This document shows, piece after piece, positions 553-23,251 of a stretch of 44,378 bases of DNA. A program made the translations under genes and the position numbers. How positions within the stretch are numbered: the stretch's first letter is position 1; every line of letters starts with the position of its first letter. Origin of the DNA: a bacterium (GTDB lineage Bacteria > Babelota > Babeliae > Babelales > GCA-2401785); the NCBI GenBank assembly GCA_018656485.1, contig JABIAA010000050.1, positions 1 through 44,378 of the forward strand, read 5' to 3'. The notes below the pieces were generated by a model. It had not been told where the DNA came from and ran no database searches. It worked only from the letters and a program-made list of their open reading frames with translations.

Positions 553-2043
553 ATGAAGAAAAATTTTATACGAATTTTCGCACTCGTCGTATGTGCTGCA
601 ATGTCAACACCAGCTGTATTTGCCACCAACCCTTCTGCCAAGGTTGAGAAGGGCCCCCAAGTAAAATTAAAAACCGAGACCCCTGCTGCGACACCGTTCG
701 GAATGCTCCCTGAAAGCAACAATTGCTCTCAAGGAGACCTTGCCGAACTTGGAAATTGCTTTTCAAGCCAGACCCAAAGTCTTAAAGCGGCACTTACAAA
801 TGGAGCAACATTCGACATCCAACCATGCATACCGCCAGCAGACTGCCCGATGAGTGACCCGCAAGTAGTCTCCGCTTACAATAAACAAGAACTAGCCCTC
901 GGTAGTGCAATTAGCGATACAATGCATGAACATTCGCTGCACGGCCAATGCAAAGCTCCACAACCTGGAGATGGATTACTAGAAGCATTGAATAATAATG
1001 TCGCAAAACTACAACAGCCAACAACACTACAACCGGGCACCATTCAATGCTCTCAATTTGATCAGGCGTACTTAAACCAACCGTGGCACGCAAACGCCGC
1101 CGCAACACTCCCATTTCTAGGCGCCGCAGGAACAGCAATACAGGCAGGCTGGCATATTCCAGGAGTACTAGAAACCATAAGTTTAATTGTAGCCACTGAG
1201 GCTGCTCGCCCGGCATTCAAGGCGCTTTACTCAAAAAGCAAAAGTCATATTGCAACTCTCATTGAAAAACGAAAAAAACTGAAAGACAACACTAAAGAAG
1301 CAAAAAATCTTGATGTTGAAATTAAAAAAGTCATAACCCAATTTGAACTTGATGCTCCAAACTTACTGAAAAAAGAAAAAGTAAAGCTTTGTACCGAATG
1401 CACCAACCTTAAATCTTTGATTAAAGAAACACCCGATGTAGCAGTAAACAATGGAGAAAGCACAAAGAAAGAACTTGAGGCCTTTTTAAAAGAAAAAGAA
1501 GCCACAGTCAAACAAATAGAAAAAGATTTAACAAACCTCGAAAATGCTTCCAAAGCCCAAGCCCCGGTAATCATTGCCAACAAAAAAACTTCCGAAACAA
1601 ACTCGATAGCAGGAAGCGACAATGGTTCCACACAAGCAGTTGTAAAAATACCTTCGGAAGAAACATCTGCTCCAGCGAACAATCATCACTGGAAAAATGT
1701 TGCACTCGCTCACGGCATCGGTGCAGGCGTAGCCCTCACGGGAGTTGCAGCTGAACTTGGCTTCGGATACATGTTCCACAAAAAGGCACACGGTACGCTC
1801 AGCTTTGGACAGTTCGTTAAGCGTCACTTTGTTGAACTTACAAAGATTGTCGGCCAAGTCACCCAAGGAAACTTCAAGGCACTTGCGCAGCTCAAGACAT
1901 ACCCAGCAACCGTCGCAACAATCCTTGCAGCAGCCTTTGACGCTACTGGATACTGGATTGGCTACGAAGGCATTGCTCGCGGAATTTGCAAGGTCGGCAA
2001 AACCTCTGCACCCGCAATTGAAGCCGTAGCAAAGACTGCATAA
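553..2043 (+). CDS. secreted/membrane coiled-coil protein, unknown function
   Basis: ATG at 553 follows TGGAG. The signal peptide is MKKNFIRIFALVVCAAMSTPAVFA. A K/E-rich coiled-coil centre is flanked by Gly/Ala-rich hydrophobic segments. The upstream ORF extension from 475 lacks a signal peptide. Confidence 0.7.
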   Translation: MKKNFIRIFALVVCAAMSTPAVFATNPSAKVEKGPQVKLKTETPAATPFGMLPESNNCSQGDLAELGNCFSSQTQSLKAALTNGATFDIQPCIPPADCPMSDPQVVSAYNKQELALGSAISDTMHEHSLHGQCKAPQPGDGLLEALNNNVAKLQQPTTLQPGTIQCSQFDQAYLNQPWHANAAATLPFLGAAGTAIQAGWHIPGVLETISLIVATEAARPAFKALYSKSKSHIATLIEKRKKLKDNTKEAKNLDVEIKKVITQFELDAPNLLKKEKVKLCTECTNLKSLIKETPDVAVNNGESTKKELEAFLKEKEATVKQIEKDLTNLENASKAQAPVIIANKKTSETNSIAGSDNGSTQAVVKIPSEETSAPANNHHWKNVALAHGIGAGVALTGVAAELGFGYMFHKKAHGTLSFGQFVKRHFVELTKIVGQVTQGNFKALAQLKTYPATVATILAAAFDATGYWIGYEGIARGICKVGKTSAPAIEAVAKTA

Positions 2044-6098: not shown

Positions 6099-8540
6099 TC
6101 AGCCGGCCTCAGCCTGGCCAGTCAAAGTTAATTCTTTGACGTCGACGGTTCGGGCACCACGGTTGGCAGTGACCATTCCTTTCCCCCCACCATTAGATTT
6201 GTCATCGCCGCCTAGCAAGTCCTGCAAATCTTTCAGGTGAATACTTCCGCCAGGGGCATTTATTTTCGCCTGGACTTCTAACCGCTTAAGCTCTTTGGAA
6301 AGCATCTCTTCACCACCATCGGGAAGCTCCTGTGCTAACACTTCCGTGAGATACGAAATTCCGCCAGACATATCTTTTTCCTGCTCATAGCTCTGCGCGA
6401 TGCGAACGTGACAGACAGGGAACTCTTTTGTGTGCTCAAGAACCTGCTTGTAGGCCTGGCGAGACTCAGTAAACTTTCCGAGAGAATACAAGCTCTCTGC
6501 AAGGTTGTAAGAGAACTTTGGAACATTCGGATACGCCTGTGAAAGTTGAGCGTATGATTCACAAGCAACATCAAGTTTTCCAAGAAGAAAGTACGCGTTC
6601 GCTCTGTTGAAAACAATCTGAGCGGTAACTTCATTTCCGCCCATTCGCTTAAGTGCATCATCAAAAGCTTGTGCGGCTTCTTCATACTTTTCAAGCTTGA
6701 GGCTAACTTGCCCAAGAATGTTGAATGCCTCAGAAACGTCAAGGTCACCTATTGTTGCATTTTTGAAGTGTTGCCACGCTTCTTCCATCCGCTCTTGCTC
6801 AAAACAAAGTCGTCCGTAGTTAAACCACGCTTTTCCGTAGTACGGTCGCAACGCAATTGCCTTGGTTAAGCACAACTCTGACTTTTCATATTCTTTTTTC
6901 TTCATGAGCAAAGAACCAAGGTTGTTGTAAGCTTCTGGATAATCTGGGAAGAGTCTTGTTGCTTCTTGAAGTGCGGCAATTGCTTTGTCATCGTTTCCGC
7001 GAACCGAATAAGCAACTGCCATGTTGCTCCATGGATCGGAATAAAATCTGTCGAGTCGAATTGCTTCGAGGTAATGTGGAATAGCTTCTTCGTACCGCTC
7101 GTGTTCGGAAAGAGCAACCCCAAGATTGTTGCGTGCGCGGGCCTTTGTTGGCGCCTTGTAAATTATGTCTTCCCAAAATGCGATCGTACTTCTCCACACT
7201 TCATTGCGTTGCATTGTTGTAATTCCAAGCATTGAAAAAGCCAAGAGAAAAATTGGAAAGACTTTTGGGAATGTAAGTTCAGAAATAAATTTCACATCCC
7301 ACTGCTTAACGATCCATCTCACTGCATAGACAATTCCCATTGCAATTATGAAAAGCCACCCTGGCGACGCCATGTAGGTTTTGTAGTCGCATACAAGTTC
7401 TGCGGATGGAATAATAGTTGATCTCGGAGCGGACACGGCAAAAAACCAAATCAAGCCAAAAGTTATTGGAGAAGCTTTATCTTTGCGGAACAGATGAATC
7501 GCAATTCCAAAAATTGTCATGAGTGCAAGAAATGAAAAGAATGTGTCCGGCGCAAAAAAACTAGGTGACAGCTTCCAGTCATACTCAACACTCATATTGA
7601 TAGGCCAAAGAAAGACAAAGAGGTAGTGCAGCAAAACTTTGAACTCGCTAATTAAAAACGAGAGGGGATAAATTGTGTCGTTAGCAGACTTCGTCAGGAT
7701 GTTCCCACGGTTATTCACGATGGAGTACTTCAGGCCAAAAATTTTCATGAAGAAAGCGGGCCTCATATAAAACAAGAGGGTCCCAAAAACCACGCCGGTA
7801 AACGCCAGGTGGAAAAGAAGCCTCTTCTTAAAACTGCTCCACTCGCCTTCTGCAATAAAAAACCAGTCAGTGATTAGAGCAAGTACCGGCAATGCGATAA
7901 CAATTTCCTTGGTCCCACAAGAAAGCGAACCAAACAAAAATGTCGCTGTGTACAAAGCAATTTTCGCCCACTCATTTTTCGTCTGCGCAGCCAAAACAAA
8001 GAATAAAAGAGTGATCAATGAAAAGCATGTCGCCAATCCTTCAAGCCGTGCCTGAATCGCATACGACACCGTCTGCGATTGAACTGGATGTAGGAGAAAA
8101 AGCCCCGCGGTAACCGATGCAAGCCACACCGCATTTGTTTGAAGGAATTTATGTTTTTTTAATTTTGCGCAAAGAAAATAGATGAAATAAAAAACTAACG
8201 CCCCGGTGATCATGTGGACCAGAACATTGCAGAAACGATAAATGTTCGGCGAAAAACCCCCGAACTGGTAATTCCATCTATTCAGGCACTCACCCATCCA
8301 ACGGCTATTGCTGAAAAGCTGTTTCTTAAAATCAAAGAATCGAATTTCAAATTTCTTCGTGATGTTTGCAAGGTCGTCAAATTGAAATGGGTATCCAAGA
8401 GATTTATAATAAAAAACATAGGTTAGAATCACCAAGACCGCAGGGGGAAGAATTAACTCCAGCCACGAAGTCCGCTCAACCCCAACACGACTTTTTGAAT
8501 GCACTCGACGCGACACGTTCGTCTTCACTCTCTTCTCCAC
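6099..8540 (-). CDS. multi-pass membrane protein with C-terminal TPR repeats (TMTC/DUF1736-like)
   Basis: The N-terminal half has about 10 TM helices and a YPFQFDDLANI motif. The C-terminal half has at least 8 TPR-like repeats (W.N.G..Y...G.Y..A...Y..A). The likely start is GTG 8540, 6 nt after GGAAGGAG. The ORF also stays open to an ATG at 8585. Confidence 0.8.
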   Translation of the reverse strand: MEKRVKTNVSRRVHSKSRVGVERTSWLELILPPAVLVILTYVFYYKSLGYPFQFDDLANITKKFEIRFFDFKKQLFSNSRWMGECLNRWNYQFGGFSPNIYRFCNVLVHMITGALVFYFIYFLCAKLKKHKFLQTNAVWLASVTAGLFLLHPVQSQTVSYAIQARLEGLATCFSLITLLFFVLAAQTKNEWAKIALYTATFLFGSLSCGTKEIVIALPVLALITDWFFIAEGEWSSFKKRLLFHLAFTGVVFGTLLFYMRPAFFMKIFGLKYSIVNNRGNILTKSANDTIYPLSFLISEFKVLLHYLFVFLWPINMSVEYDWKLSPSFFAPDTFFSFLALMTIFGIAIHLFRKDKASPITFGLIWFFAVSAPRSTIIPSAELVCDYKTYMASPGWLFIIAMGIVYAVRWIVKQWDVKFISELTFPKVFPIFLLAFSMLGITTMQRNEVWRSTIAFWEDIIYKAPTKARARNNLGVALSEHERYEEAIPHYLEAIRLDRFYSDPWSNMAVAYSVRGNDDKAIAALQEATRLFPDYPEAYNNLGSLLMKKKEYEKSELCLTKAIALRPYYGKAWFNYGRLCFEQERMEEAWQHFKNATIGDLDVSEAFNILGQVSLKLEKYEEAAQAFDDALKRMGGNEVTAQIVFNRANAYFLLGKLDVACESYAQLSQAYPNVPKFSYNLAESLYSLGKFTESRQAYKQVLEHTKEFPVCHVRIAQSYEQEKDMSGGISYLTEVLAQELPDGGEEMLSKELKRLEVQAKINAPGGSIHLKDLQDLLGGDDKSNGGGKGMVTANRGARTVDVKELTLTGQAEAG

Positions 8541-9060
8541 AACCGACTCCTTCCATGAGGCGCAGCATCTCCAAGCCACGCACATCGATTAAAAATAGTT
8601 TAGGAACAACCCCAGCAGAAGTAAACTCCGAGCCAAATCCAAATGACTTCACTTCACAACACGAGAATCTTATATAATTTATCAAATTGTTGGACTTCAA
8701 ATTTCTTCGTGATGTTCGCAAGATCATCAAATTGAAATGGGCATCCAAGAGATTCATAGTAAAAAACATAGGTGAGAACCACCAAGACCGCAGGGGGAAA
8801 AATTAACTCCAGCCGCAAGGTAACCGCTCATACTCCAACACAATTTTTGGACTGCACACAACGCGACACGTTCGGCTTCACTCTCTCTTCTCCACAACCG
8901 ACTCCTTCCATGAGGCGCAACATCTTCAAGCCGCGCACATCGATTAAAAATAGTTTAGGGATACAACCCCAACAGAAGTAAACTCCGCCAAAGGAAACTC
9001 CGCGCCAAACACAAATGGCTTCACTTCACAACAAAGGGTTTTATATCATTCACCAAATCG
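8346..9060. repeat. tandem direct duplication (about 344 bp plus about 365 bp) of the 5' end and upstream region of the TPR gene
   Basis: 8346-8689 and 8696-9060 align end to end with a few substitutions and small indels, for example ttcaaatttcttcgtgatgtt.gcaag and ccttccatgaggcgca.catct.caagcc.cgcacatcgattaaaaatagttt. Confidence 0.85.
8696..8940 (-). pseudogene. degenerate duplicate of the first ~80 codons of the TPR membrane protein
   Basis: The copy of the ATG at 8940 reads M-C-A-A-stop. An extra GA in the gagagagtg stretch shifts the frame. The remnant still encodes a FYYESLGCPFQFDDLANITKKFE-like string in a broken frame. Confidence 0.7.
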
Positions 9061-10873: not shown

Positions 10874-12067
10874 ATGATTTCTCCAGAAGAACAAATCAAA
10901 ACACTTCAAGTTGGCACCGAACAGATTCTCCCAAAAGAAGAGTTGAGGAAAAAGCTAAAGCGCGGAAAACCGCTCATTGTAAAATTTGGTGCGGATCCAA
11001 CTGCACCGGACCTGCATCTTGGGCACGCCGTCGTACTTTCCAAGTTGCGACAGTTCCAGGACCTAGGGCACAAAATTGTTTTCCTCATTGGTGATTTTAC
11101 AACGAAGATTGGTGACCCGAGCGGTCGATCAAAAACACGTCCACCGCTGAGCGACAAAGAAATTAAACAAAATGCAGAAACATACTTCACACAGGTTGCA
11201 AAAATTTTAGATCCCAAGAAAACTGAAATCGTCTACAACTCCACATGGCTCAACAAAATGATGTTGTCGGACATCCTAAAACTTCTTGGGAAGGTCACCG
11301 TCGCACGAATCATCGAACGAGAAGATTTCAAAAACAGGCTAGACAAAAATCTACCGCTCGGCTCTCACGAACTGTTGTACCCGCTGTTGCAGGGCTACGA
11401 CTCCGTTGAGTTGAAGGCTGACCTAGAGCTTGGTGGAAGTGATCAAACTTTTAACCTTCTCATGGGTCGACACCTTCAAGAACAATACGATCAAGAACCG
11501 CAAGTTGTTATGACTTTCCCCTTGCTTGAGGGAACCGACGGTGTCGAAAAAATGTCCAAGAGTTACAACAACTACATCGGGCTTTTCGAGACAGCTGAAA
11601 ACGCATTCGGAAAATTGATGTCCATTTCTGACGACCTCATGTTCAGGTACTCATTACTCCTTTTGCATACATCAAACGAAGAAATCGAAAAACAGAAAAA
11701 AGAAATCGCATCTGGTTCTTTGCACCCAATGGACCACAAGAAAAAAATTGCGCACACCATCGTCACAAAATTCTGGTCCAAAGAAGAGGCGGACAAGGGG
11801 CTTGAACACTTTAAGTCAATCTTCCAAAAGAAAGATTACGAACAAGCAACCGAGGTCAAAGTCAGTGGACTTGAAAGTCCGTGCTGGATCGTTGATCTTT
11901 TGAAGACTACAGGCGCTGTGACAACATCATCGCAGGCAAAACAACTCATCGAAGCTGGTGCGGTTACAATCGACGACGTCAAGGTCGCCGACTTCAAGGC
12001 AACAGTCAAATGGAAAGCCGGCTCAATCATTAAAGCAGGTAAAAAGAAAATTATAAAAATTAGCTAG
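10874..12067 (+). CDS. tyrS: tyrosine--tRNA ligase
   Basis: Class I HIGH motif (DLHLGHAV), KMSKS motif (EKMSKSYNN), a GGSDQ motif and a C-terminal S4-like domain. Length is 397 aa. Confidence 0.93.
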   Translation: MISPEEQIKTLQVGTEQILPKEELRKKLKRGKPLIVKFGADPTAPDLHLGHAVVLSKLRQFQDLGHKIVFLIGDFTTKIGDPSGRSKTRPPLSDKEIKQNAETYFTQVAKILDPKKTEIVYNSTWLNKMMLSDILKLLGKVTVARIIEREDFKNRLDKNLPLGSHELLYPLLQGYDSVELKADLELGGSDQTFNLLMGRHLQEQYDQEPQVVMTFPLLEGTDGVEKMSKSYNNYIGLFETAENAFGKLMSISDDLMFRYSLLLLHTSNEEIEKQKKEIASGSLHPMDHKKKIAHTIVTKFWSKEEADKGLEHFKSIFQKKDYEQATEVKVSGLESPCWIVDLLKTTGAVTTSSQAKQLIEAGAVTIDDVKVADFKATVKWKAGSIIKAGKKKIIKIS

Positions 12068-13095
12068 GCAATTCCAACCTCACCACACACTTCGAGCTCG
12101 ACTTTGATCACGTTGTCTGCAGCCGCGAGAAACTTGTCCCAACGCTCTTCATCCCAAGAGGACAAACAATCCGCTTCGTATGACGGATAACCGCTAAGCC
12201 AAATTCCCACTAGGCCATCCCAGACATCTTCGAAGGTGTCTCGCAAAGAAGCAGTATGTGGATTTTCTAAGCTTGCAGCTCGTGAGGCTTCCCACACATA
12301 AAGAATCATTTCAGCAAGTCGCTCATTGTACCACAGACGTTTTAAACCACCAGAAAGTTCTTCTGTTTCAATTGGTTCATATCCAAGTCCACAAATAATT
12401 GCTGAAGCTTTTTTTTGAACTTCTTTTGCACGATCAGCGCCTAAAAAATCGCAGGCTACTTTTGAAACATCGAGTAGTTTGTTGTCAATAACAAGAGTGT
12501 GCTGTTTGTGAAATGCACGAAGAGACATATTTACAAACATTGCCTCGAGCAAAAAGTCTTGTGCGTCCTGCGTGGAGAGATTCAAGCCCAGGCCATCAAG
12601 ACAACCTAAAACTTCAGAAAACTTACTTCGAATCTTGGCATTTAATTTTTTGTACATCAAAGCAACGCAACCACAAGCCGCTGCTGCAAACAAAGAGAAA
12701 CCAACGATCGGTTTCCACGTCAGCGCCTTGGCACCCTTAGGAACACTCATGATTCCATTTTTTTGCAAAGCAGCACAGATCCCAAGCGCAACGGGGCTGA
12801 TAATTGCCCCCCCGGCGAATGCATATTTTTCAAACTTATCCACCCTTGCAAGCGCTGGATATTCTGGCGTGTGAAATTTCACCCAAGCCTTTGTAAATCC
12901 GTTGATCTTCTCAAACAGCTCTTGCTGAAGATCTTTCTCCTCAAGTGCTTGGTAAATTTTTGCACTATCGCTGGCTTGTCCTGAACAAAGAAACTTTGAT
13001 GCGGCAAATTCAGAAATTTTGATTTCGGCGGGGCTAAAAGAAACACACGACTGCGATGCAGCACAAAAAAGTATTGCAAGTTTTAGAAACTTCAT
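12064..13095 (-). CDS. secreted/membrane protein with a central paired hydrophobic hairpin
   Basis: TGGAG RBS. The signal peptide is MKFLKLAILFCAASQSCVS. Two TM-like segments (FAGGAIISPVALGICAAL and IVGFSLFAAAACGCVALMY) are separated by 19 aa. The stop overlaps the tyrS stop within CTAG. Confidence 0.7.
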   Translation of the reverse strand: MKFLKLAILFCAASQSCVSFSPAEIKISEFAASKFLCSGQASDSAKIYQALEEKDLQQELFEKINGFTKAWVKFHTPEYPALARVDKFEKYAFAGGAIISPVALGICAALQKNGIMSVPKGAKALTWKPIVGFSLFAAAACGCVALMYKKLNAKIRSKFSEVLGCLDGLGLNLSTQDAQDFLLEAMFVNMSLRAFHKQHTLVIDNKLLDVSKVACDFLGADRAKEVQKKASAIICGLGYEPIETEELSGGLKRLWYNERLAEMILYVWEASRAASLENPHTASLRDTFEDVWDGLVGIWLSGYPSYEADCLSSWDEERWDKFLAAADNVIKVELEVCGEVGIA

Positions 13096-13170
13096 GGCAA
13101 CTCCAATAAGAAAAATTGTCAGATGCCACAGTTAACAAAAAAAATTGTAAACCGTCAAAAGCTGAAAAGC

Positions 13171-14169
13171 TTATCGCATTGTGACAACTTTAACAAAATC
13201 ATCATACACACAATGACATGGCTGCTCTACGAACATTTTGTAGCCAGCGACAGATCCGGCCATGCACGCGAGAAAACAAATAAGCTCACAACAATTGTAT
13301 CCATTGGGCACCCGGCTGTATAAATCTGTAAAACATTGGAACCGAGTTGCGCCATTATTCTCGTAAGTTGCAATAGAATTAAATATATTTTGCGCCTCAA
13401 AAATCCTTCTGTAGCAACGCCCGCGCCCGACAAGCCTACCGCAATGATCGTGTGCAAAATCAGATAGATCATTTAAAATTTCACACGAAGCGTTCGCCAG
13501 CGCTATTGTGCCGCTCATCAATGCCGCTTTCATTTTTTCGCCAATCTCAATCGCCTTTTTAGCTTTAAGATCAGAAAGACCTAGTTCGTCAAAAAGATTG
13601 AGGACCTCATTGACCACACTAAGAACAATTTTCACACGTGTTTCATCATAAAAATTTAGATTCGACCGCGCCCTTGAAAAAATAAATTCGTACAATGCTA
13701 CGACATCACGTTGCAACTCAATCGGATCATCGTTGGGAATTTCGTTCGACGCTCTGCTACACGAAGCAACCGGCGAACAAGATGCTCCACTGCCGAGGCT
13801 ACTAGCAAGTTGTCCAATGCTAAACGAAATTGGAAGCGCATCGACCACAACTTCATTGCTAAGGAGCTCCATTATAAAATCGTCTTGATGAACCGCAGGA
13901 AGAAGACTTTGAATTCTTGGATCATCTGAATTTTTTAGATGATCATCCATCCAATTCTTGAAGGATCTGAATTTTGCATCGCCAAGCATTTCACGCAATT
14001 TTGTCTTCGCCTTTTTGCGCTTCGCGGCAGTCGCTTCGTTGTAAGAATAAAACGCCATCCTGACTTGCGATTCAAAAGCAGCCCAGCTGATTTTCTCAAC
14101 CGCAAAGGCCCCTGAAACCACAACCAACAAAGCCGGAATTATGCACTTTACAAAATTGGAAATTTTCAT
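13171..14169 (-). CDS. secreted protein, paralog family A, member 1
   Basis: ATG at 14169 gives MKISNFVKCIIPALLVVVSGAFAVEKISW. It is paralogous to the next two genes. The C-terminal tail is Cys-rich and ends VVTMR. Confidence 0.8.
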   Translation of the reverse strand: MKISNFVKCIIPALLVVVSGAFAVEKISWAAFESQVRMAFYSYNEATAAKRKKAKTKLREMLGDAKFRSFKNWMDDHLKNSDDPRIQSLLPAVHQDDFIMELLSNEVVVDALPISFSIGQLASSLGSGASCSPVASCSRASNEIPNDDPIELQRDVVALYEFIFSRARSNLNFYDETRVKIVLSVVNEVLNLFDELGLSDLKAKKAIEIGEKMKAALMSGTIALANASCEILNDLSDFAHDHCGRLVGRGRCYRRIFEAQNIFNSIATYENNGATRFQCFTDLYSRVPNGYNCCELICFLACMAGSVAGYKMFVEQPCHCVYDDFVKVVTMR

Positions 14170-14210
14170 TGATGACTCGTGAAAATAAAATACAATAAAA
14201 AAACAATGGC

Positions 14211-15254
14211 TTATCGCATAACAACAGGATTTCTTGCTAGACAAACTGAACAGTCTCTGCATTCAAAGTAAAAAATCGCTGCATAGATACAAAAGTTCAA
14301 GCTCTTCGTGCCACAACAAATCCTATAATTACAGAAACGCCAAACTGATTCAAATACATCCTTGAAGCATCCAACATGATCACCCGCTTCATTCCTTGTT
14401 ATATCATGAAGGAGTCTATCCGCCTCGAGAAAAACATGTCGGCCATCAAAATTTTTATTCGCGCCCAAAGAACCGGTTGCGTCACGCCCATTTTTTCTCA
14501 TTCTCATAAATTCTTCAAGATCAAAGGCCAGCGTTTCAACAAGTTGTGTAATTTGCGTGTTTTTTGGACTTTCAAACCCCGCAATAAACTCTTGATTTTC
14601 AGCGCTACCTTTTATTTGTTTTATTAATTTCGAAGTAATTTTTCTGATTTTTTTGACATCATCATCTGACAAATCGGGATTAACACAAGTAAGAGAAAAA
14701 ATATTTCCCACCAAAGAAATCAGTAATTTAACTCGTTCATAATCATAAAAAGTGATCCGGTTTTCCACAGCCAAGTCTAATACCACCTTGAAACCATTAG
14801 CCAAACTTTCTCGCAACGATATTTCCGCGGAGGAATCGGCTACATGAGTTTTTTTCATTTTTCTATTTATCAGAACGCTTGAAGAAGCCCCGCCGTGAGA
14901 CCCCACTTGCTCAAAAGCGTCCCCAAATATTTGTGCCTTTGATACATCAACCACTTCACCAAGGAGATCAATAATGCAGCTGTCTTTGTATCCCTCCAAC
15001 ATCAAAGATTGAATTGACGAATTATTAATCTGATGTTCGAGAACCCAATCTTTGAAAAAAATAAATTTTTCTTCCCCCAATATCCTACGCAGTCCTTCTG
15101 AAGCTTTTTGACGCGCCTCTACATCACCATGGGAAAAAGCCATCGAGACCTTCAACTCAAATTCATCCCAACAAACCTTTTCAACGGCATAAATCTCCGA
15201 AAACAAAAAATATAAGATTAGTGTAATGGATTTTATAAATTGGATTTTTTTCAT
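14211..15254 (-). CDS. secreted protein, paralog family A, member 2
   Basis: ATG at 15254 gives MKKIQFIKSITLILYFLFSEIYAVEKVCW. Shared blocks include ITFYDYERVKLLISLVGN. The Cys-rich tail ends PVVMR. Confidence 0.8.
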   Translation of the reverse strand: MKKIQFIKSITLILYFLFSEIYAVEKVCWDEFELKVSMAFSHGDVEARQKASEGLRRILGEEKFIFFKDWVLEHQINNSSIQSLMLEGYKDSCIIDLLGEVVDVSKAQIFGDAFEQVGSHGGASSSVLINRKMKKTHVADSSAEISLRESLANGFKVVLDLAVENRITFYDYERVKLLISLVGNIFSLTCVNPDLSDDDVKKIRKITSKLIKQIKGSAENQEFIAGFESPKNTQITQLVETLAFDLEEFMRMRKNGRDATGSLGANKNFDGRHVFLEADRLLHDITRNEAGDHVGCFKDVFESVWRFCNYRICCGTKSLNFCIYAAIFYFECRDCSVCLARNPVVMR

Positions 15255-15376
15255 TTTCAACTCATACAAATAAATAAAACCAAAAATTAAGACGAAAAAT
15301 TCAACACTGTTTTATAATCAGTCAACAATCGACATAGAAATATAAAATCCCACCGGATTCACACATATGCATTAAT

Positions 15377-16381
15377 CTATTTGCCCCAGAAGACACCCCA
15401 CACAAAGTCTTTCCCAAAAAAGTAGACGTAAGGGAAAAAGTCCAAAGTACCCCAACTTTGATCGCCATAATCTCGTCGATTAGGAAAATTCTTGAACACA
15501 CTGGCACAACCACTTTCTTCATCTTTTTTGATTTCACCAAAGACCCGATTTGCTTCTCGCACTGCCGACAAACCTAAACTTCGCCGCCAACTGAACACTC
15601 GGTATTTCCAACTAACAAACTTCGAAAGGTCCAACATAATTGTTTGTAACGACTCTGAAAGAGAAGGACTTTGTGGATCTTGGAATTCACCAATACATTC
15701 GTAATTTGCAACACTCTTTTGAATTCGATCTATGACTGCCTCACAAATCTCTCTTATTTTGTCGGCCTCATCTTTCGATATGACAATATCGGAACAACCA
15801 AGCCTAAAAACTTTTCCTACCGCAGATAACAAAGCAGAAACTCTGGTACAATCATAAAATGTTAGGCTTGACTCTCTTGCCATATTTAATATCGCGTAAC
15901 ATTTTGCAACCAAGCTTTGCCGCAACGCATCCGGATCATCTTTCTTGATCGTCACGGTTTTGTTGCTACACTTTTTCCTGCAATGAGCCCTATCCCGAGG
16001 AATCAACCCACTATGTAATTCGATTGGATCTGCAACACTATCGATCTCTCGATCCTCTTGAATATCAACCACCTCACCAAGAAGCCTAGTCGCATAATCA
16101 TTTTCACGAACCGAAGAAAGAAGATTTTGTATTCTCGGATCTTTTTCATCTTCTAGGTATTTTTTTAACCACTCTCTAAACGCATCATATCGCCCACCCA
16201 ACATTTTGCGCAATTCAGATTTTGCAGCTTTCCGTTGCCTCTCAACCCAGACCCCAGAGTAAAAAGCCTTATTAACCTGTGCAGAAAAAGCATCCCAACA
16301 GACCTTGTCAACAGCAAAAGCTCCTGAGCCCGCAACCAACAAAATCAGGACAACATATCTTATAAAGCTTGGAATTTTCAT
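15377..16381 (-). CDS. secreted protein, paralog family A, member 3
   Basis: GAGG RBS. The N-terminus is MKIPSFIRYVVLILLVAGSGAFAVDKVCW. Shared blocks include LTFYDCTRVSALLSAVGK. The C-terminus differs from members 1 and 2 and is aromatic-rich. Confidence 0.8.
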   Translation of the reverse strand: MKIPSFIRYVVLILLVAGSGAFAVDKVCWDAFSAQVNKAFYSGVWVERQRKAAKSELRKMLGGRYDAFREWLKKYLEDEKDPRIQNLLSSVRENDYATRLLGEVVDIQEDREIDSVADPIELHSGLIPRDRAHCRKKCSNKTVTIKKDDPDALRQSLVAKCYAILNMARESSLTFYDCTRVSALLSAVGKVFRLGCSDIVISKDEADKIREICEAVIDRIQKSVANYECIGEFQDPQSPSLSESLQTIMLDLSKFVSWKYRVFSWRRSLGLSAVREANRVFGEIKKDEESGCASVFKNFPNRRDYGDQSWGTLDFFPYVYFFGKDFVWGVFWGK

Positions 16382-16398
16382 TTCGGCCTCGTGATCTA

Positions 16399-17196
16399 TT
16401 ATTTTTTACGTTTATTTTTTTTGCTCATACTTTCAATCCCTTTAATAAATTCATTAATGAACGATGAAAAGCATGTACAGCGAGATTCGTGATATGCATC
16501 CAAAACAGAGTCTGCAAAATTCCCACCGGGGTCGATTCCACACCAATCGATTCTGCGATCATCTCCAACATTCCAGTTGCGACGAGACAAAGTTTTAAGC
16601 ACTTTCATCACGCCACTTCTTGTAGCACCAGTCTTTAAAAAATCCATAAGGGTTGGCTCACCAATTGCTTTAGTAGATTCGTAAAGTTCTACAAGTTCAT
16701 CTGGTGTTATAACATCACCAAAAGAATTTGGACTGGGTGGAAGCCCTTGCTTTGCCGCAGCAGAAGTACGAAGCATTCTGTGATCAACCACACTACTGCT
16801 GCACGGACTGCGAACTTCAATCGCTACAAATCCTTCGAGAAGTTTTTTGGAGTTATATCCATCGTTTAATTTTTCGTCCATTTCACCGCTCTCAATTGCG
16901 GGGAAAATATCCTGACTTCGCACGCCACCAACAATGTTGCAATATCGCGTCAACCGATCACAAAACAATTTGCCTTTTTCTCTTCCAAGCACTGTATAAA
17001 TGTTGTCACGAGAAGTTTTCTGATCTCTTTTGAAGCATTTTCCAGGGCTCACAACACACCGATCAAACCAATTTCTAAAAGTCTCGGTGGCAACCGGAAC
17101 CTTTATCGCAGGTGGCCGCTTCGGTTGCGGCGTAGAAAAAATATTGCACGGAAGTGCGAGAAAACACACAAGCGAAATTGATCGAATAGAAATCAT
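16399..17196 (-). CDS. secreted protein, paralog family B, member 1
   Basis: The signal peptide is MISIRSISLVCFLALPCNIFS. The first 11 codons and about 45 nt upstream are almost identical to the next gene. The C-terminus is polybasic (SKKNKRKK). Confidence 0.8.
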   Translation of the reverse strand: MISIRSISLVCFLALPCNIFSTPQPKRPPAIKVPVATETFRNWFDRCVVSPGKCFKRDQKTSRDNIYTVLGREKGKLFCDRLTRYCNIVGGVRSQDIFPAIESGEMDEKLNDGYNSKKLLEGFVAIEVRSPCSSSVVDHRMLRTSAAAKQGLPPSPNSFGDVITPDELVELYESTKAIGEPTLMDFLKTGATRSGVMKVLKTLSRRNWNVGDDRRIDWCGIDPGGNFADSVLDAYHESRCTCFSSFINEFIKGIESMSKKNKRKK

Positions 17197-17274
17197 TCTT
17201 TAATCCCATAAAATATTTTTGTTTTTCAATGTATCAAGCCTTTAAGTCGAATCTGCCCCATCGTTTTTTGCCAC

Positions 17275-18303
17275 TCAATAGCTAGCGATTTTAATAGAAA
17301 GCAGCATGTACTCATAAAAAGTAACACCTGAATTCTTATACGAATCAAGTATAGACTTCGCCTCATCACCGGAAAAACCAACGTCGCCAAAATCTATGTC
17401 GTAATTTCCAAGTGGAACATGTTTATTCAAATCAGCCAAGCGCTGACAAGTGGCAACCACATGACACTTATGCATCGGAAAATCAAGAGGGAACCCAAAA
17501 CCTCCCTTGTTAACTTTAAGGACATCCTGCTTGAAGTTGGCAATGGCACCCTTAGTGTCTAAGATGGGGGGATAGTTCTCAAGGTTACCCATTACCACCA
17601 ACAAATAATCTAAAAAAGGAAGCTCTGACTCTAGATAGCAATCTACCATTCTCTTCGCCCAGTCTGAATCCGGACAAATCCCACAAAATTTTATATCTAG
17701 GCTACCAACCGGAAGAGATCTATTATGGTGCGCCAAAGTACTAAGTACATCAACCATAGTTGGCTTACCTCTAGAATCTAGATGTCGCACAGGACCGAAA
17801 AAACTCGTAACCTCATTCGGATTTAAAGCTCTCACAGACCCTTTGGGCTCTCTTGTAACTCTTGGCCTTGCAACCGCGGCTTCACGCACCTTCCTGTATG
17901 CAGGAAGAGGACTATCTTTTTTCGGAAAATCAACCCTATCATCGAGAAGATCTAAACAACTTTGTCCATCGGCTAGTTCCGCATCAATCCTACCATCACA
18001 GATTGCTGGCATAACATCCTGAATGCGCAGGCCTTCGAATTTTTCACAATATTTCTTTATCCGATCACGAAATGCCCTGCCTTGCTCATCGCCAAGAACC
18101 TTATCAATATTTTTACAAAAAGCTTTGCATTGACCGTCATTAAACTTTGCAGGGCTCACGATACATTCTACCCAATTTTTAAACATCCCCTCCTTCACAG
18201 GGAGTTTTATATTTTCAAGCGGCTTTGTTTTTTTGGGCGCAGAAAAAACATTGCACGAAATTGCGAAAAAACACACAAGCGAAATTGATCGAATAGAAAT
18301 CAT
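17275..18303 (-). CDS. secreted protein, paralog family B, member 2 (internally duplicated C-terminal domain)
   Basis: The signal peptide is MISIRSISLVCFFAISCNVFS. Two copies of a roughly 60-aa module are present (..LPVGSLDIKFCGI..AKRMVDCYLES..FLDYLL and ..VPLGNYDIDFGDV..AKSILDSYKNS..FYEYML). Confidence 0.8.
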   Translation of the reverse strand: MISIRSISLVCFFAISCNVFSAPKKTKPLENIKLPVKEGMFKNWVECIVSPAKFNDGQCKAFCKNIDKVLGDEQGRAFRDRIKKYCEKFEGLRIQDVMPAICDGRIDAELADGQSCLDLLDDRVDFPKKDSPLPAYRKVREAAVARPRVTREPKGSVRALNPNEVTSFFGPVRHLDSRGKPTMVDVLSTLAHHNRSLPVGSLDIKFCGICPDSDWAKRMVDCYLESELPFLDYLLVVMGNLENYPPILDTKGAIANFKQDVLKVNKGGFGFPLDFPMHKCHVVATCQRLADLNKHVPLGNYDIDFGDVGFSGDEAKSILDSYKNSGVTFYEYMLLSIKIASY

Positions 18304-18338
18304 TTTTTAATCCTATAAAATATTTTTGTTTTTTGTAT

Positions 18339-19256
18339 TCAAGCAATCGCTTCAAGCAATCGCTTCTGCTCGAGAAGCAAAGAATCTACGCAATGGAAAA
18401 AATGCTTCTCATCCTCTGGACCATGATAGATCGGAAAAGTTGTATTCCATTCTTTCTGTGCAAAATTATCATCGACAAATTTTGGTTCAAATTGAACCAA
18501 AATCGATTTACCAGGACTGAAATCCCCACTTGCTTTAAACTTAAGGCAACAACTTCCCTTCAATTTATCAATCCCATCGTCTAAATCGATTGCCATTTGC
18601 TGACCAGAAACAACATTGCTCACAAGAGCCGAAACCCCATCCCGAATTATCGATGCAACCGCACGCGTTACAAAACGATCTTCATGCAAAGAATCTACCG
18701 GTGATGAAAGTAAAAAATTTTCGAACAATGCGACGAAGGCTTCGATATCCCTTCTAACAACTGTCTCTTTTTTAGCTTTCTCCGATTTGAAAGCATCCGG
18801 GCTGATCACGCTTAGATCGTTTGGAACAAAGGTTCTGCTTGTTGAGCGACTGCTAGAATTTTGCGGGCTAACCGGTTCCTCAAATTCAATCCGGTCTTCA
18901 ACAAGCCGTTTTAGTTTTTCTCGCCCTTTTAAATCTTCAACCTTAGAGCCTTTCACCGCCTTAAGATCTTTTTCCATCGACGACCAGTTGTATTGCGGAA
19001 AGCTCAAAATCCAATCCACAAAAACGTTAACCCCGTCTTTGCCAAAGTTATCCGCGAGATCAGCCTTCGCTTCCTTGCGAATTTTTTCTGTTTTTCCAAG
19101 ACGAAACCTACGAACAATCCCAGGCAGTGAGCTCAATTTAACTTTTGCGTTACTTGGAATAACAACGCGAATCGGTCTTTGATTTTTTCCAGCACAAACA
19201 TTAAATTGCGAAACAAAAAACATCGAAAGCGTGAGCATTAAAAATTTCTTTAACAT
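18339..19256 (-). CDS. secreted protein, paralog family C, member 1
   Basis: ATG at 19256 lies 7 nt after the stop of member 2, with an AGGAA RBS. A signal peptide is present. The N-terminal ~160 aa are near-identical to member 2. Confidence 0.8.
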   Translation of the reverse strand: MLKKFLMLTLSMFFVSQFNVCAGKNQRPIRVVIPSNAKVKLSSLPGIVRRFRLGKTEKIRKEAKADLADNFGKDGVNVFVDWILSFPQYNWSSMEKDLKAVKGSKVEDLKGREKLKRLVEDRIEFEEPVSPQNSSSRSTSRTFVPNDLSVISPDAFKSEKAKKETVVRRDIEAFVALFENFLLSSPVDSLHEDRFVTRAVASIIRDGVSALVSNVVSGQQMAIDLDDGIDKLKGSCCLKFKASGDFSPGKSILVQFEPKFVDDNFAQKEWNTTFPIYHGPEDEKHFFHCVDSLLLEQKRLLEAIA

Positions 19257-19263
19257 GAAGTTC

Positions 19264-20244
19264 CTAAATTTTTAACGTAAAACTTGAAACGGCCTGCTCA
19301 TATGCTTCTCTCAAACAATCATCAGTCAAAGGCTGCCCACTTTCAATTTTCTGTTTACGAACACCGACAAGCCTTTCGGAAAAAAGAACAAAGTTTGAAA
19401 TCGTAAAAAATGACTGAACGTCACGCGGACCACGGTACAGCGGCCGCTCAGGATCCCACACATCATCAAATTCATCTTCAAATTTCACATTAATAGAATT
19501 TTCTTTGGTGTAATCCCCACTAGCCTTGAAGGCAAGCTCGAAGCTTTCCGCACGCCCATCGAATCTAATAACGGAAGTTTTTCCTGAAACTAACATCGAT
19601 GCAAGCTCATCAATCCTATCAACAAGTTCCGCAATAACCATATATGTTACTGCGCCCCCTCCCGCTTGCGAAGAACGTGGCGTTGCCTCTGCAAAAAAAT
19701 TTGCAAGGCACTCAATAAAATACTTCGCGTCTTTTGCAACAACCTTTTCTTTTCGATAACGCTCAGACCTGAAAGCATCCGGGCTTAGCGCACTTGGATC
19801 GCTTGGAACAAATGTCCTACTGGTAGAGCGATTTCCAGAGTTCAGTGGACTAGCTGTTTCCTCAAATTCTATACAGGCTTCAACAAGTTGTTTTAGCTTT
19901 TCTCGCCCGTTTAAATCTTCAACCTTAGAGCCTTTCACCGCCTTAAGATCATTCTCCATCGACGACCAGTTGTATTGCGGAAAGCTCAAAATCCAATCCA
20001 CAAAAACTTTAACATCTACACCAAAACTACATACGAGATCAGCCTTCGCTTCCTTGCGAATTTTTTCTGTTTTCCCAAGACGAAATCTGCGAACAATCCC
20101 AGACAGTGAGCTTAATTTAACTTTTGCGTTACTTGGAATAACAACGCGAAGAGGCTTGTTGTTTTCTCTATTCCTTCCGGCATTCACATCGAAGGCGCAA
20201 AAAGAAATTGAAAACCAAATGAGAGATAAAATTTTAATTAACAC
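19264..20244 (-). CDS. secreted protein, paralog family C, member 2
   Basis: GTG start at 20244. The signal peptide is MLIKILSLIWFSISFCAFDVNAG. Family motifs FKASGDY and PLYRGP are present. Confidence 0.8.
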   Translation of the reverse strand: MLIKILSLIWFSISFCAFDVNAGRNRENNKPLRVVIPSNAKVKLSSLSGIVRRFRLGKTEKIRKEAKADLVCSFGVDVKVFVDWILSFPQYNWSSMENDLKAVKGSKVEDLNGREKLKQLVEACIEFEETASPLNSGNRSTSRTFVPSDPSALSPDAFRSERYRKEKVVAKDAKYFIECLANFFAEATPRSSQAGGGAVTYMVIAELVDRIDELASMLVSGKTSVIRFDGRAESFELAFKASGDYTKENSINVKFEDEFDDVWDPERPLYRGPRDVQSFFTISNFVLFSERLVGVRKQKIESGQPLTDDCLREAYEQAVSSFTLKI

Positions 20245-20348
20245 AGCAAACCTTTATGAAACCTAATTAAAGTGGTTTCAAAGGTTTACATCGAAAACAA
20301 AATATCGTCAAACAATATTGAGAAAAACATTAAAAATTTATAAAGCTG

Positions 20349-21320
20349 CTACAGCTTGGAAATACAGTTTTGGGAACAATTACAAGTACAGCCATTTTTT
20401 ACAGCGTTCTGCTTTCTAATTCCATCGTATGAAAAACGATAAAAATTGTCCTCTGAGAAAAAACTTTCAGCATCACCTGGGCCACGATACAGCGGAAGAT
20501 TTGGAGAAAAGTTATAGCAACCGCACTCGCCACAAAAAGAAACTCGTATCGATTTTTCAGCGGAATAATCACCAGTCGCGCCAAGACAAAACACAAAAGT
20601 TCTGCCATCATCAACAGGATTTGGCATGGATACCCTTTTCACACCGCCTGAGACAAGCGCATTCGCAATTTCATCAACGAAATTAAACAAGTTCCGAGCT
20701 GCCGCACAATTCTCAGTCTCGAAATCCCCAGACAAATCGACAAAAAATTGCTCTAAACACTTGATAAAGAGCATTACGTCGTCACGGACGACAACTTTTC
20801 TTCTAGAAATCTCTTCTTTTCTTGCTCTATTAATTTTGACAGTTTCAAAATCAAGATAGTCAGGAACTTCTGGAATCCCAGTCGCACGATTTCCCGAATT
20901 CTGTGGACTAGCCTTTTCCTCGAATTCAATTTTGGCGAGAACAATTTGATGAAACTCTTCAACCGGATTATTCTCAGTGCTCATCGCCCAAAGTTCTTTT
21001 TTTATTTGCGACCAATTGTACTGTCCCAAACTCAAAATCCAATCTGTAAAAACTTTAGCGCCACGCTCTCCAAATGAATCAACAAGCTCTCTCTTTGCTC
21101 GTTTCTTTTCATTTACAAAGCCATTACAGAACTCACCAAGGATCGTGGACAGTGAACTCAGTATTATTTTTCCGTTACTTGAAGTTGAAATGCGCGATGG
21201 AGAATGGAACTTAGCCTTTCCCGCCCGAACTACATTATTAGGACCACTTCTTCCGGCATTCACACTGACGGAACAAAAAGAAATTGAAAAACAAATGAGA
21301 GATAAAACTTTAATTAACAC
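20349..21320 (-). CDS. secreted protein, paralog family C, member 3
   Basis: GTG start at 21320. The signal peptide is MLIKVLSLICFSISFCSVSVNAG. Motifs GATGDY and PLYRGP are present. The C-terminus is Cys-rich (NGCTCNCSQNCISKL). Confidence 0.8.
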   Translation of the reverse strand: MLIKVLSLICFSISFCSVSVNAGRSGPNNVVRAGKAKFHSPSRISTSSNGKIILSSLSTILGEFCNGFVNEKKRAKRELVDSFGERGAKVFTDWILSLGQYNWSQIKKELWAMSTENNPVEEFHQIVLAKIEFEEKASPQNSGNRATGIPEVPDYLDFETVKINRARKEEISRRKVVVRDDVMLFIKCLEQFFVDLSGDFETENCAAARNLFNFVDEIANALVSGGVKRVSMPNPVDDGRTFVFCLGATGDYSAEKSIRVSFCGECGCYNFSPNLPLYRGPGDAESFFSEDNFYRFSYDGIRKQNAVKNGCTCNCSQNCISKL

Positions 21321-21435: not shown

Positions 21436-21503
21436 TAGCCGGCCAGAAGCCCAAAGGGCGAAGAAAGCGAATTTTCATTGGATGTGTTGGTCCAGCCTAC
21501 GCC
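21436..21503. repeat. short dispersed repeat, copy 1 (downstream of the tRNA cluster)
   Basis: It is similar to 21631-21699 (ccggcc..gaagcc...gcgaag.aagcgaattttcattg.a.gt...ggtccag). It contains the 17-mer AGCCCAAAGGGCGAAGA, which also abuts the tRNA-Asp 3' end at 21778-21794. Confidence 0.6.
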
Positions 21504-21630
21504 ATTTAATTATCGCCAAATTTTTTCGAAAAACGATGCAAATTCATGGATCCAGCCAACTGTTCAATCTTGACGGGCTATGGCGGGCAGCCTTCTTTAT
21601 CTAAAAATCTTCTTAGAAAATACCACTACT

Positions 21631-21699
21631 GGCCGTTCCGGCCGAAGCCTTGTGCGAAGTAAGCGAATTTTCATTGAACGTACCGGTCCAGTCTTCGTC
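21631..21699. repeat. short dispersed repeat, copy 2
   Basis: This is an imperfect copy of 21436-21503. Identity appears to be roughly three quarters by eye. Confidence 0.6.
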
Positions 21700-21795
21700 A
21701 AGACTTCGACGGACAGTCTTCTCATTTTGCGAACAATGTTTACTTAAAATTCCACCAAAAGCTGGCGTGCCGGTCGTAGCCCAAAGGGCGAAGAC

Positions 21796-21873
21796 TGGCG
21801 GGGTTGACGGGACTCGAACCCGCGACCTTCCGCGTGACAGGCGGACGCTCTAACCAAACTGAGCTACAACCCC
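21796..21873 (-). tRNA. tRNA-Asp (GTC), CCA encoded
   Basis: The reverse complement folds as a cloverleaf. The acceptor is GGGGTTG/CAACCCC, the anticodon arm is TCCGC-CTGTCAC-GCGGA, the T-loop is TTCGAGT and the 3' end is GCCA. Confidence 0.9.
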
Positions 21874-21924
21874 AAAGACGGTATGCTGCAGTCAAAATCT
21901 GACTTGCATACCCCGAAGGGAAAA

Positions 21925-22000
21925 TGGCTCCCTGGGCGGGACTCGAACCTGCGACCTAACGATTAACAGTCGTGTGCTCTACCAACTGAGCTACCAGGGA
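21925..22000 (-). tRNA. tRNA-Asn (GTT), CCA encoded
   Basis: The acceptor is TCCCTGG/CCAGGGA, the anticodon loop is CTGTTAA, the T-loop is TTCGAGT and the 3' end is GCCA. Confidence 0.9.
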
Positions 22001-22067
22001 ACAAAAATTTCAAAATCCGTGCGGACTTATGGCTGTGCCGGCCGTAGCTCACTTTGTGAGCGAAGGC

Positions 22068-22144
22068 TGGTGGGCGAAACAGGATTCGAACCTGGGACCC
22101 CCTGCTTGTAAGGCAGGGGCTCTAACCAGCTGAGCTATTCGCCC
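22068..22144 (-). tRNA. tRNA-Val (TAC), CCA encoded
   Basis: The acceptor is GGGCGAA/TTCGCCC, the anticodon arm is CCTGC-CTTACAA-GCAGG, the T-loop is TTCGAAT and the 3' end is ACCA. Confidence 0.9.
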
Positions 22145-22273: not shown

Positions 22274-23251
22274 TTACTCCTGCGACTCGTCGCCAGACCC
22301 TTTCTCCGGGCTAAGTGCAGCACAAGCAGTTGCAAAAAATTCATCAACTGACTTCGCTGCCAGCAAAATATGCCACCGGACAACAGCAGCAATTGCTCCC
22401 CCGGCTTGCCCAGTCCAAAAGCATCTTGTATCAACAAGCATCTTTATCATGTGTTTGAACGATATCCGGGCTTTATCAACTCCATCCGAGTCCTCTGGAA
22501 GAGCGCGCAGGGCATTGACTATCGCAAGCAATCGGCGCAAACGCGCAACTTCCTGCTCATCAAATTTTGCCATCGCAAAACTAGAAACCTTTGCCGCATC
22601 GTCCATAGTAACAGGAAACTTATTCTCGAGATATGAATCAGCAGCCTCGGTCGCTTGCGTAAACTTGTCCGAATTGAAACCAATATTGCGGGCGAATTTC
22701 ATCAAAGGCCAATACGCAAAAGCCGCTTTGATCTCCTCATCCGAAGCACCTGCTTCCCCAAGCGCACGATATAATTTTTTAAAGGCCCTTGTGCCCGATG
22801 TCAAATCCCGAAGCACCATATAAGAACAAAAAAACATCACCGACGATGCAAGACCAAAACTTACTGGAATGCCCCATGGTACCGCAGTGCCTCTTTTTTT
22901 TGCGGATAGAACATATGCAGCAGATAAAGTGGCTATTCCCATAACCCCACAGAACAACGGTACATAAAAAACTTCTTTCACTGCTTTCGCCACAGAAATA
23001 TTTTCAAGGTTTTCGCAACCCAAATGCATAAACCAAAGTTCTGCGAAATCGGCAAAATTGGAAACCAGCTTGTCACGCTGCTCAGTTTCAAGATCACTCC
23101 CCCAAGAAAACGGTAAAAACTTTTCCGTTGCACCTGAGCCAAAACCATCTGCCAAAATGTCAGGACTCAATGCATTGGACTCCGAATAAAGCCCGGAGCT
23201 CCCAGCACAAACACAGCACAGCAAAGCCGCTACCAGTCGCCTATTTACCAT
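22274..23251 (-). CDS. secreted/membrane protein with a paired hydrophobic hairpin
   Basis: ATG at 23251 lies 7 nt after GGAAGGAG. The signal-like N-terminus is MVNRRLVAALLCCVCAGSSG. Two TM segments (VFYVPLFCGVMGIATLSAAYVL and IPVSFGLASSVMFFCSYMVL) are separated by 12 aa. The longer ORF to 23401 would run through the rlmB promoter. Confidence 0.7.
   Translation of the reverse strand: MVNRRLVAALLCCVCAGSSGLYSESNALSPDILADGFGSGATEKFLPFSWGSDLETEQRDKLVSNFADFAELWFMHLGCENLENISVAKAVKEVFYVPLFCGVMGIATLSAAYVLSAKKRGTAVPWGIPVSFGLASSVMFFCSYMVLRDLTSGTRAFKKLYRALGEAGASDEEIKAAFAYWPLMKFARNIGFNSDKFTQATEAADSYLENKFPVTMDDAAKVSSFAMAKFDEQEVARLRRLLAIVNALRALPEDSDGVDKARISFKHMIKMLVDTRCFWTGQAGGAIAAVVRWHILLAAKSVDEFFATACAALSPEKGSGDESQE

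Follow-up and report, generated by a model that had tools for sequence, protein, structure and literature searches.

The stretch of DNA analysed here, 44,378 nucleotides of contig JABIAA010000050.1 (GenBank assembly GCA_018656485.1; hereafter the window), carries between positions 12064 and 21320 an array of nine neighbouring minus-strand open reading frames (ORFs), eight of which appear from their sequences to belong to one superfamily with a common N-terminal module. The explanation that we consider somewhat probable is that the array represents a lineage-specific tandem family whose products would be exported by the Sec pathway, probably secreted onward, and candidates for roles in host interaction. 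All nine reading frames are intact and are separated by gaps of 7-122 nucleotides (nt). An earlier reading of the letters of this DNA (the original prediction) had given the same number of minus-strand ORFs and the same gaps, and had placed them, correctly, between tyrS and a tRNA cluster (Table 1); its size range of 265-343 amino acids (aa) becomes 265-347 aa with corrected starts. The starts used here lie just upstream of the hydrophobic leader, which gives A1 332 aa rather than the 363 aa of its longest ORF, and A2 347 aa. The array gene nearest to tyrS, the singleton S1, is convergent with it and overlaps its stop codon by 4 nt.

All-versus-all BLASTP reproduced the predicted grouping into a family A of three members (A1, A2 and A3, 31-37% identical, E 1e-22 to 1e-38), a family B of two (B1 and B2, 36% identical, E 5e-40), a family C of three (C1 and C2 54% identical, C3 at 36-42%, E 1e-39 to 1e-97) and the singleton S1. 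It additionally gave weak N-terminal cross-matches between families, and the separateness of the three families, which the prediction had implied, did not survive: a region of about 100 residues directly after the signal peptide, which we call the N-module, is common to A1-3, B1-2 and C1-3 (8/8) and absent from S1, which stands outside the superfamily. With hhalign the regions aligned collinearly just past the signal peptide, at E 1e-3 for A with B and E 9e-3 for A with C. Hidden Markov models (HMMs) built on mature residues ~23-135 with one family left out at a time, and scored against composition-preserving shuffles, joined A to B at z up to 20 and A to C at z 6-10, the real score being reached by 0-2 of ~450 shuffles. 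The C-terminal parts served as an internal control and stayed at background in 27 of 28 scored comparisons, the exception being A versus B2 (z 3.8). When the models were run against 1,429 real sequences, the A profile placed B2 first (E 1e-4) and C1 and C3 at ranks 2-3, the B profile placed A3 and A1 at ranks 1-2, and the C profile placed A2 first.

The alignment of the eight sequences yields the motif [RK]K.AK..L...LG......F.DW...IQ.L..A....LL...V.FEE. AlphaFold2 predicts the N-module of family A as four helices, with a predicted local distance difference test score (pLDDT) of 75-82, and repeats this helix pattern in family C at lower confidence (block means ~45-60). The minima of pLDDT (24-34) coincide with a Ser/Pro-rich stretch behind the N-module, and we read this very-low-confidence stretch of the models as a putative flexible linker. 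The plan common to the eight proteins is accordingly a signal peptide, the N-module, the Ser/Pro-rich stretch and a C-terminal part conserved only inside each subfamily. Because the N-terminal module is common to all eight, A, B and C are, at the level of sequence comparison, a single superfamily with divergent C-terminal parts and not three families.

A Sec-type signal peptide had been predicted for every array protein. Signal peptides were called here by a rule-based scan with internal controls, considering the n-, h- and c-regions and small residues at positions -3 and -1. In all nine array proteins, and in a tenth orphan protein, X, encoded beyond the tRNA cluster, the n-region is basic and free of acidic residues, the h-region is uncharged, 11-19 residues long and starts at residue 5-9, and a (-3,-1) site falls within residues 19-23 (among these sites are AFA↓V, IYA↓V, IFS↓T, VFS↓A, VCA↓G and VNA↓G). 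An h-region is missing from ten window proteins that have no role in export (TyrS, SpoU, ribosomal protein S1, NDK-1, NusB and EF-P among them), and in FtsA and FtsZ it is short and begins only at residue 20. The scan therefore agrees with the prediction in 9/9 cases, and the array proteins carry the predicted tripartite N-terminus of substrates of Sec and signal peptidase I. Inspection of the N-termini found the lipobox [LVI][ASTVI][GAS]C conserved within no family; a relaxed pattern is fitted only by B2 (AISC) and S1 (SQSC), the B1 paralogue reading LPC. A bacterial lipoprotein (signal peptidase II) identity was ruled out, there being no conserved lipobox at the cleavage site.

Searches for relatives returned the array itself. 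The profile of family A, run exhaustively with HMMER against 1.84 billion representatives, recovered only its three members, and the profiles of families C and B retrieved only themselves from 5.8 billion proteins. The array proteins had no match among the 1,398 ORFs of 22 tyrS-anchored loci (8 of them with a tyrS 57-63% identical) and none in viral contigs, and their database records read solely 'hypothetical protein HOD08_019xx [bacterium]'. Scans of ten proteins (the nine and X) with Pfam, NCBIfam and PHROGs gave nothing above the curated cut-offs. PDB sequence-profile searches with A, B, C, the N-module, S1 and X gave nothing credible, the best profile match being to 40 residues of a designed TPR-like protein (E 4e-4), with no single stretch passing alone. 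The AlphaFold2 models of families C and A have mean pLDDT values of 52 and 44 across the two and are poor outside the N-module; with these low-confidence models, Foldseek against the PDB (both models) and BFVD (the family A model) gave best E values of 1.5-2.4, for a criterion of E < 0.001. Neither the profile searches nor the structural comparisons thus matched a characterised domain or fold, as had been anticipated when the proteins were described as lacking any recognisable domain, and the family is, as far as its sequences tell, new in having no relatives.

A single contig came from the scan of Joint Genome Institute (JGI) metagenomes. On this contig of 1.15 kb (Ga0307927_1013669, our locus L027), an ORF without a signal peptide (698-1153, plus strand) includes FFGRMDVKVFTDWITTLKYYFQW, similar to the N-module motif in its core. 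The likeness extends over ~44 residues about the seeded motif; its support is borderline (z ~5), with ~0.25 chance matches expected among the 123 seeded candidates tested. Identification of this ORF as a retrotransposon Gag was a guess that Pfam did not confirm.

Nine long ORFs on the same strand, their paralogy and dN/dS values below 1 place the array far beyond chance, and identical DNA (99.99-100% identity) was found in three independent assemblies, which together with the coding signals argues that the array is no artefact. The N-modules of C1 and C2, the sole N-module comparison in which synonymous divergence (dS) is unsaturated (dS 0.39), give a dN/dS of 0.21, a value that shows the signature of purifying selection and indicates constrained coding sequences. 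The lower GC content at third codon positions of the array (0.358 versus 0.433 in the remaining window, p 1e-4; close to that of other nearby orphan genes) and the want of homologues would also suit decaying or non-functional duplicates, mere noise in a fast-evolving region. We hold this to be highly improbable given that 9/9 frames have remained open over 265-347 aa, that dN/dS is low where dS is unsaturated, and that the signal peptide and the N-module motif have been kept in all copies.

Similarity at the DNA level between array genes remains in three tract pairs only (Table 1). Outside the first tract C1 and C2 are ~45-58% identical in nucleotides, and the C-terminal halves of family C are all ~45% identical. 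The leader tract of B1 and B2 contains 0 synonymous differences against a dS of 1.39 in the adjoining N-module, and that of C2 and C3 has a dS of 0.155 against 1.3. Since C2 resembles C3 at its 5' end and C1 in its N-module, it is chimeric, and the contrasts in dS between leader and N-module are read here as probable segmental gene conversion among paralogues.

Gene conversion also diversifies variable surface-antigen repertoires, in which paralogues are expressed alternately (as in vlp-like systems of Mycoplasma or the paralogous lipoprotein families of Borrelia), and the array could be taken for one: B1/B2 and C2/C3 combine a conserved upstream region and leader with a divergent mature part, and the chimeric C2 and the dS contrasts point to conversion. 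Such a repertoire nevertheless seems quite improbable to us. A lipobox is common within no family, we saw no homopolymer, tandem-repeat or invertible switch elements, and there are no promoterless cassettes, all copies being full-length with their own start. Moreover, an intracellular protist parasite meets no adaptive immunity, and no population-level shuffling is visible between the assemblies from three samples, at 99.99-100% identity. A cassette-based antigenic variation locus was likewise rejected, the copies being full-length with a start and a signal peptide and lacking switch-like repeats. From the original prediction of an effector, adhesin or surface-variation repertoire we therefore retain the host-interaction role as reasonable and, in the part on surface variation, gene conversion, but silent cassettes, repeats and switch elements are absent.

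A consensus scan for promoters and terminators gave chance-level results only. No repeats bracketing the array, including att-like ones, were found, nor any integrase among the ORFs, which rules out a mobile island integrated at a tRNA and suggests that the array was built in place; we propose that it arose there through repeated tandem duplication. The closest tyrS genes, 57-63% identical, lie in metagenome-assembled genomes (MAGs), three of which carry the label Candidatus Babeliales. The source genome is thus probably a Babeliales (Dependentiae/TM6) MAG and the organism probably host-dependent, and these nearest relatives make a secreted role in host interaction reasonable. In three of the loci compared (L005, L011 and L014), and partly in two others (L006 and L010), tyrS is again followed by small signal-peptide ORFs on the minus strand and then by spoU, ftsA and ftsZ. 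In these relatives the tyrS-spoU interval has only one to seven genes, no tRNAs and no detectable similarity to the nine proteins. Because the content of this interval varies, the array fills a variable spot of a conserved tyrS ... spoU-ftsA-ftsZ neighbourhood; in the window X completes the interval. Small signal-peptide ORFs stand right after tyrS in relatives also (L005 11182-13029, L011 11217-12294 and L006 11516-12480, all on the minus strand), and in L005 two adjoining ones start alike (MESSMKRRG.. and MESCMNRIR..). It may be that lineage-specific exported genes recur at the position after tyrS.

S1 and X flank the N-module genes, and each consists of a signal peptide and a two-helix hydrophobic hairpin. 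The two hydrophobic segments of S1 are predicted to form a membrane hairpin, and S1 and X would be separate signal-peptide membrane-hairpin orphans in the same variable interval. These two proteins, alone among the ten, resemble chlamydial Inc proteins in having two close hydrophobic helices within an orphan protein, without sequence similarity; Inc proteins carry a type III secretion signal and not a Sec signal peptide, and we know of no type III secretion system reported for Dependentiae.

Dependentiae are widespread protist parasites that have almost never been cultured and whose secreted proteins are mostly uncharacterised. If the array encodes secreted host-interaction proteins, they would be translocated by Sec over the inner membrane, cleaved by signal peptidase I and folded in the periplasm, where their Cys content (3.1% versus 1.3% in the remaining window) would fit disulfide bonding. 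Release or surface exposure would follow, most plausibly via the type II secretion system conserved in TM6 genomes or via outer-membrane vesicles. The common N-module could then be the part by which the proteins are exported, anchored or bound by a shared partner, and the diverged C-terminal parts could act on different targets in the host or the envelope. The type II secretion system described as core to TM6 has two gspD copies (PMC4776705).

The first of these steps is open to another continuation. A Sec signal peptide alone brings a protein only to the periplasm, and the array could encode envelope proteins that stay there or in the outer membrane and serve the degenerate envelope of the bacterium itself, for instance as a disulfide-cross-linked layer in the style of the chlamydial Cys-rich proteins. 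The Cys enrichment and the hydrophobic or aromatic C-terminal tails of family A would agree with this, and the Babeliales outer membrane is described as degenerate (PMC4776705). We nonetheless regard envelope proteins as an unlikely answer: structural envelope proteins are usually lineage-wide and no homologue was found even at 57-63% tyrS identity, C1 and C2 contain just 1.3-1.5% Cys, and Cys positions differ among paralogues.

Several points also count against our main explanation. Export beyond the periplasm is something that we purely infer, and secretion genes are absent from this window. The poor conservation of Cys positions between paralogues weakens the disulfide argument. The signal peptides were called by rules, not by SignalP or DeepTMHMM, and outside the N-module the AlphaFold models are of low quality, which leaves the missing fold matches with little weight. 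The link between families B and C is transitive only, via A. Selection on DNA or RNA, instead of gene conversion, could account for the conserved 5' tracts. Finally, the taxonomic assignment is based on one marker (tyrS) and on synteny.

The company in which the array is found bears on how unusual it is. About 24 of the 39 window genes look signal-peptide-bearing, and other small tandem pairs are present. In the cultured relative Chromulinavorax destructans signal peptides occur on 44% of coding sequences, a subset enriched in ORFans and putative effectors (PMC6561590). Signal-peptide orphans being the norm in both, the array is less exceptional than first thought. It is like the Dependentiae ORFan secretome of C. 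destructans in its probable phylum-level lineage, in the Sec signal peptides on many genes, in the homologue-less enrichment of the signal-peptide subset and in the proposed role in host manipulation. That description is genome-wide and stresses ankyrin-repeat proteins, proteases and nucleases (PMC6561590), and the passages available from it and from the TM6 study (PMC4776705) describe neither a family with this N-module nor an eight-gene tandem array. A tandemly expanded, fast-evolving, Sec-dependent orphan family carried by an obligately intracellular bacterium is of a kind already known and expected in Dependentiae. The claim of an 'undescribed system' was overstated, the array consisting of paralogues only, with no partners of accessory, enzymatic or regulatory kind.

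A bolder idea, which we entertain with little confidence, is that the N-module might be a domain of a hitherto unknown type, dedicated to delivery or anchoring, that takes the proteins from the periplasm to the host side via the duplicated GspD secretins or vesicles. If this were true, the array would make up a modular effector family of Dependentiae, complete in itself, whose export handle stays constant while new host-targeting C-terminal parts evolve behind it, a bacterial counterpart of the RxLR-type effector architecture. An N-module that did serve as a handle for export or anchoring would also provide a means of finding effectors in Dependentiae. Oomycete RxLR effectors and bacterial polymorphic toxins such as MafB combine, like the array proteins, a signal peptide, a conserved N-region and a divergent C-terminal part with tandem clusters and recombination between paralogues, but the array has no RxLR/dEER motif and no toxin-immunity pairs, and the resemblance is architectural only.

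The same tandem arrangement, in which a linker joins the conserved N-module to unrelated C-terminal parts, could suggest Sec-dependent polymorphic-toxin-like modules, in which an N-terminal trafficking domain carries interchangeable C-terminal toxins against competitors or the host, following the logic of MafB and CdiA-CT. There is, however, no space for immunity genes in gaps of 7-122 nt; Pfam, NCBIfam and the PDB revealed no toxin domain (PADLOC and toxin-specific libraries were not searched); and the C-terminal parts are conserved inside subfamilies and not swapped like cassettes, so that we give such modules hardly any credence. Membership in a polymorphic toxin system was rejected for the absence of an adjacent immunity gene and of a toxin domain in Pfam or NCBIfam. 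An identity as chlamydial Pmp autotransporters, recognised by GGA(I/L/V) and FxxN repeats and a C-terminal beta-barrel, was ruled out too: Pfam gave no autotransporter or Pmp match, and we reason that 265-347 aa are too short for a passenger and a barrel.

Among known secreted proteins, the Ntt ('novel type two') proteins of Legionella are substrates of the type II secretion system with no known fold, their dependence on that system having been shown experimentally. The array proteins would be like them in taking a Sec and then a type II route, the second step being inferred for the array, and in being lineage-restricted, domain-less proteins acting in amoeba infection; unlike the array, the Ntt proteins are not tandem paralogues with a common N-module, and there is no sequence relationship. 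Among wall-less or reduced intracellular bacteria, the SAP proteins of phytoplasmas and the Sec-delivered effectors of Liberibacter are likewise signal-peptide-dependent, lineage-specific, often clustered and fast-evolving candidate effectors, but most are < 200 aa and have no common N-module. Phytoplasmas, moreover, are single-membraned and Sec alone suffices for them, whereas a diderm needs a second export step. The array is a compact example of how a repertoire is built, by duplication in place, a constant N-module, diverging C-terminal parts and exchange of segments; at present it is a catalogued orphan family whose main use will be in comparative work when a culture or closer genomes become available.

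Table 1. Array genes, flanking genes and exchange tracts in the window (↓, predicted cleavage site).
Feature	Coordinates	Strand	Description
tyrS	10874-12067	+	Pfam tRNA-synt_1b; converges on S1
S1 (singleton)	12064-13095	-	343 aa; predicted signal peptide and two adjoining hydrophobic segments, aa 91-111 and 128-149
A1	13171-14169	-	332 aa; predicted signal peptide AFA↓V, N-module, putative linker, helical C-part, Cys-rich hydrophobic tail
A2	14211-15254	-	347 aa; family A paralogue
A3	15377-16381	-	334 aa; family A paralogue
B1	16399-17196	-	265 aa; predicted signal peptide IFS↓T, N-module, putative linker, single ~54-aa C-unit, polybasic C-terminus KKNKRKK
B2	17275-18303	-	342 aa; B1-like, ~54-aa C-unit internally duplicated (internal repeat E 6e-9)
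C1	18339-19256	-	305 aa; predicted signal peptide VCA↓G, N-module, putative linker, alpha/beta C-part
C2	19264-20244	-	326 aa; chimeric, upstream region and signal peptide C3-like, N-module C1-like
C3	20349-21320	-	323 aa; most divergent family C member
tRNA-Val, tRNA-Asn, tRNA-Asp cluster	21796-22144	-	upstream of the array, same strand
X	22274-23251	-	325 aa from an internal ATG; tenth signal-peptide orphan, two-helix hydrophobic hairpin, beyond the tRNAs
Exchange tract 1	18788-19171	-	C1 N-module block; 86.7% nt identical to C2 19770-20150
Exchange tract 2	20174-20340	-	C2 signal-peptide codons and upstream region; 88.6% nt identical to C3 21250-21414
Exchange tract 3	17125-17226	-	B1 signal-peptide codons and upstream region; 92% nt identical to B2 18233-18333

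The spacer between C3 and tRNA-Asp (21440-21800), for which an Rfam search gave no match, contains a degenerate duplication of ~196 nt whose 47-nt core is 81% identical (21458-21504 and 21654-21700). A perfect 17-mer, AGCCCAAAGGGCGAAGA, which includes a small GCCC/GGGC hairpin, occurs there at 21448 and 21778, the second copy abutting the 3' end of tRNA-Asp. Elsewhere in the window, two nucleoside diphosphate kinase (NDK) genes form a tandem pair (30642-31076 and 31283-31759, both on the plus strand, 65% identical). The second copy has the signal peptide MCFKKIISKAILVFLMTAGVAYA↓KVEK and is a candidate exported NDK beside a cytoplasmic one. A second orphan tandem pair lies at 33183-34199 and 34219-35367 (plus strand; 31% identity, E 4e-45, no Pfam match); the first of the two has a signal peptide, the second shows one only from an internal Met, and a weak third relative is found at 36682-37527 (plus strand, E 0.004). 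Between 40243 and 43683 on the plus strand, five neighbouring ORFs of 182-223 aa all have signal-peptide-like N-termini; the two that were scanned, at 40243 and 41009, gave no Pfam domain, and those at 42454 and 43135 have a common leader (E 0.002). Finally, a tandem DNA duplication of ~290 nt (8346-8630 and 8696-8987, 89% identity) overlaps the 5' end and the upstream region of a gene for a TPR protein (6099-8585, minus strand).

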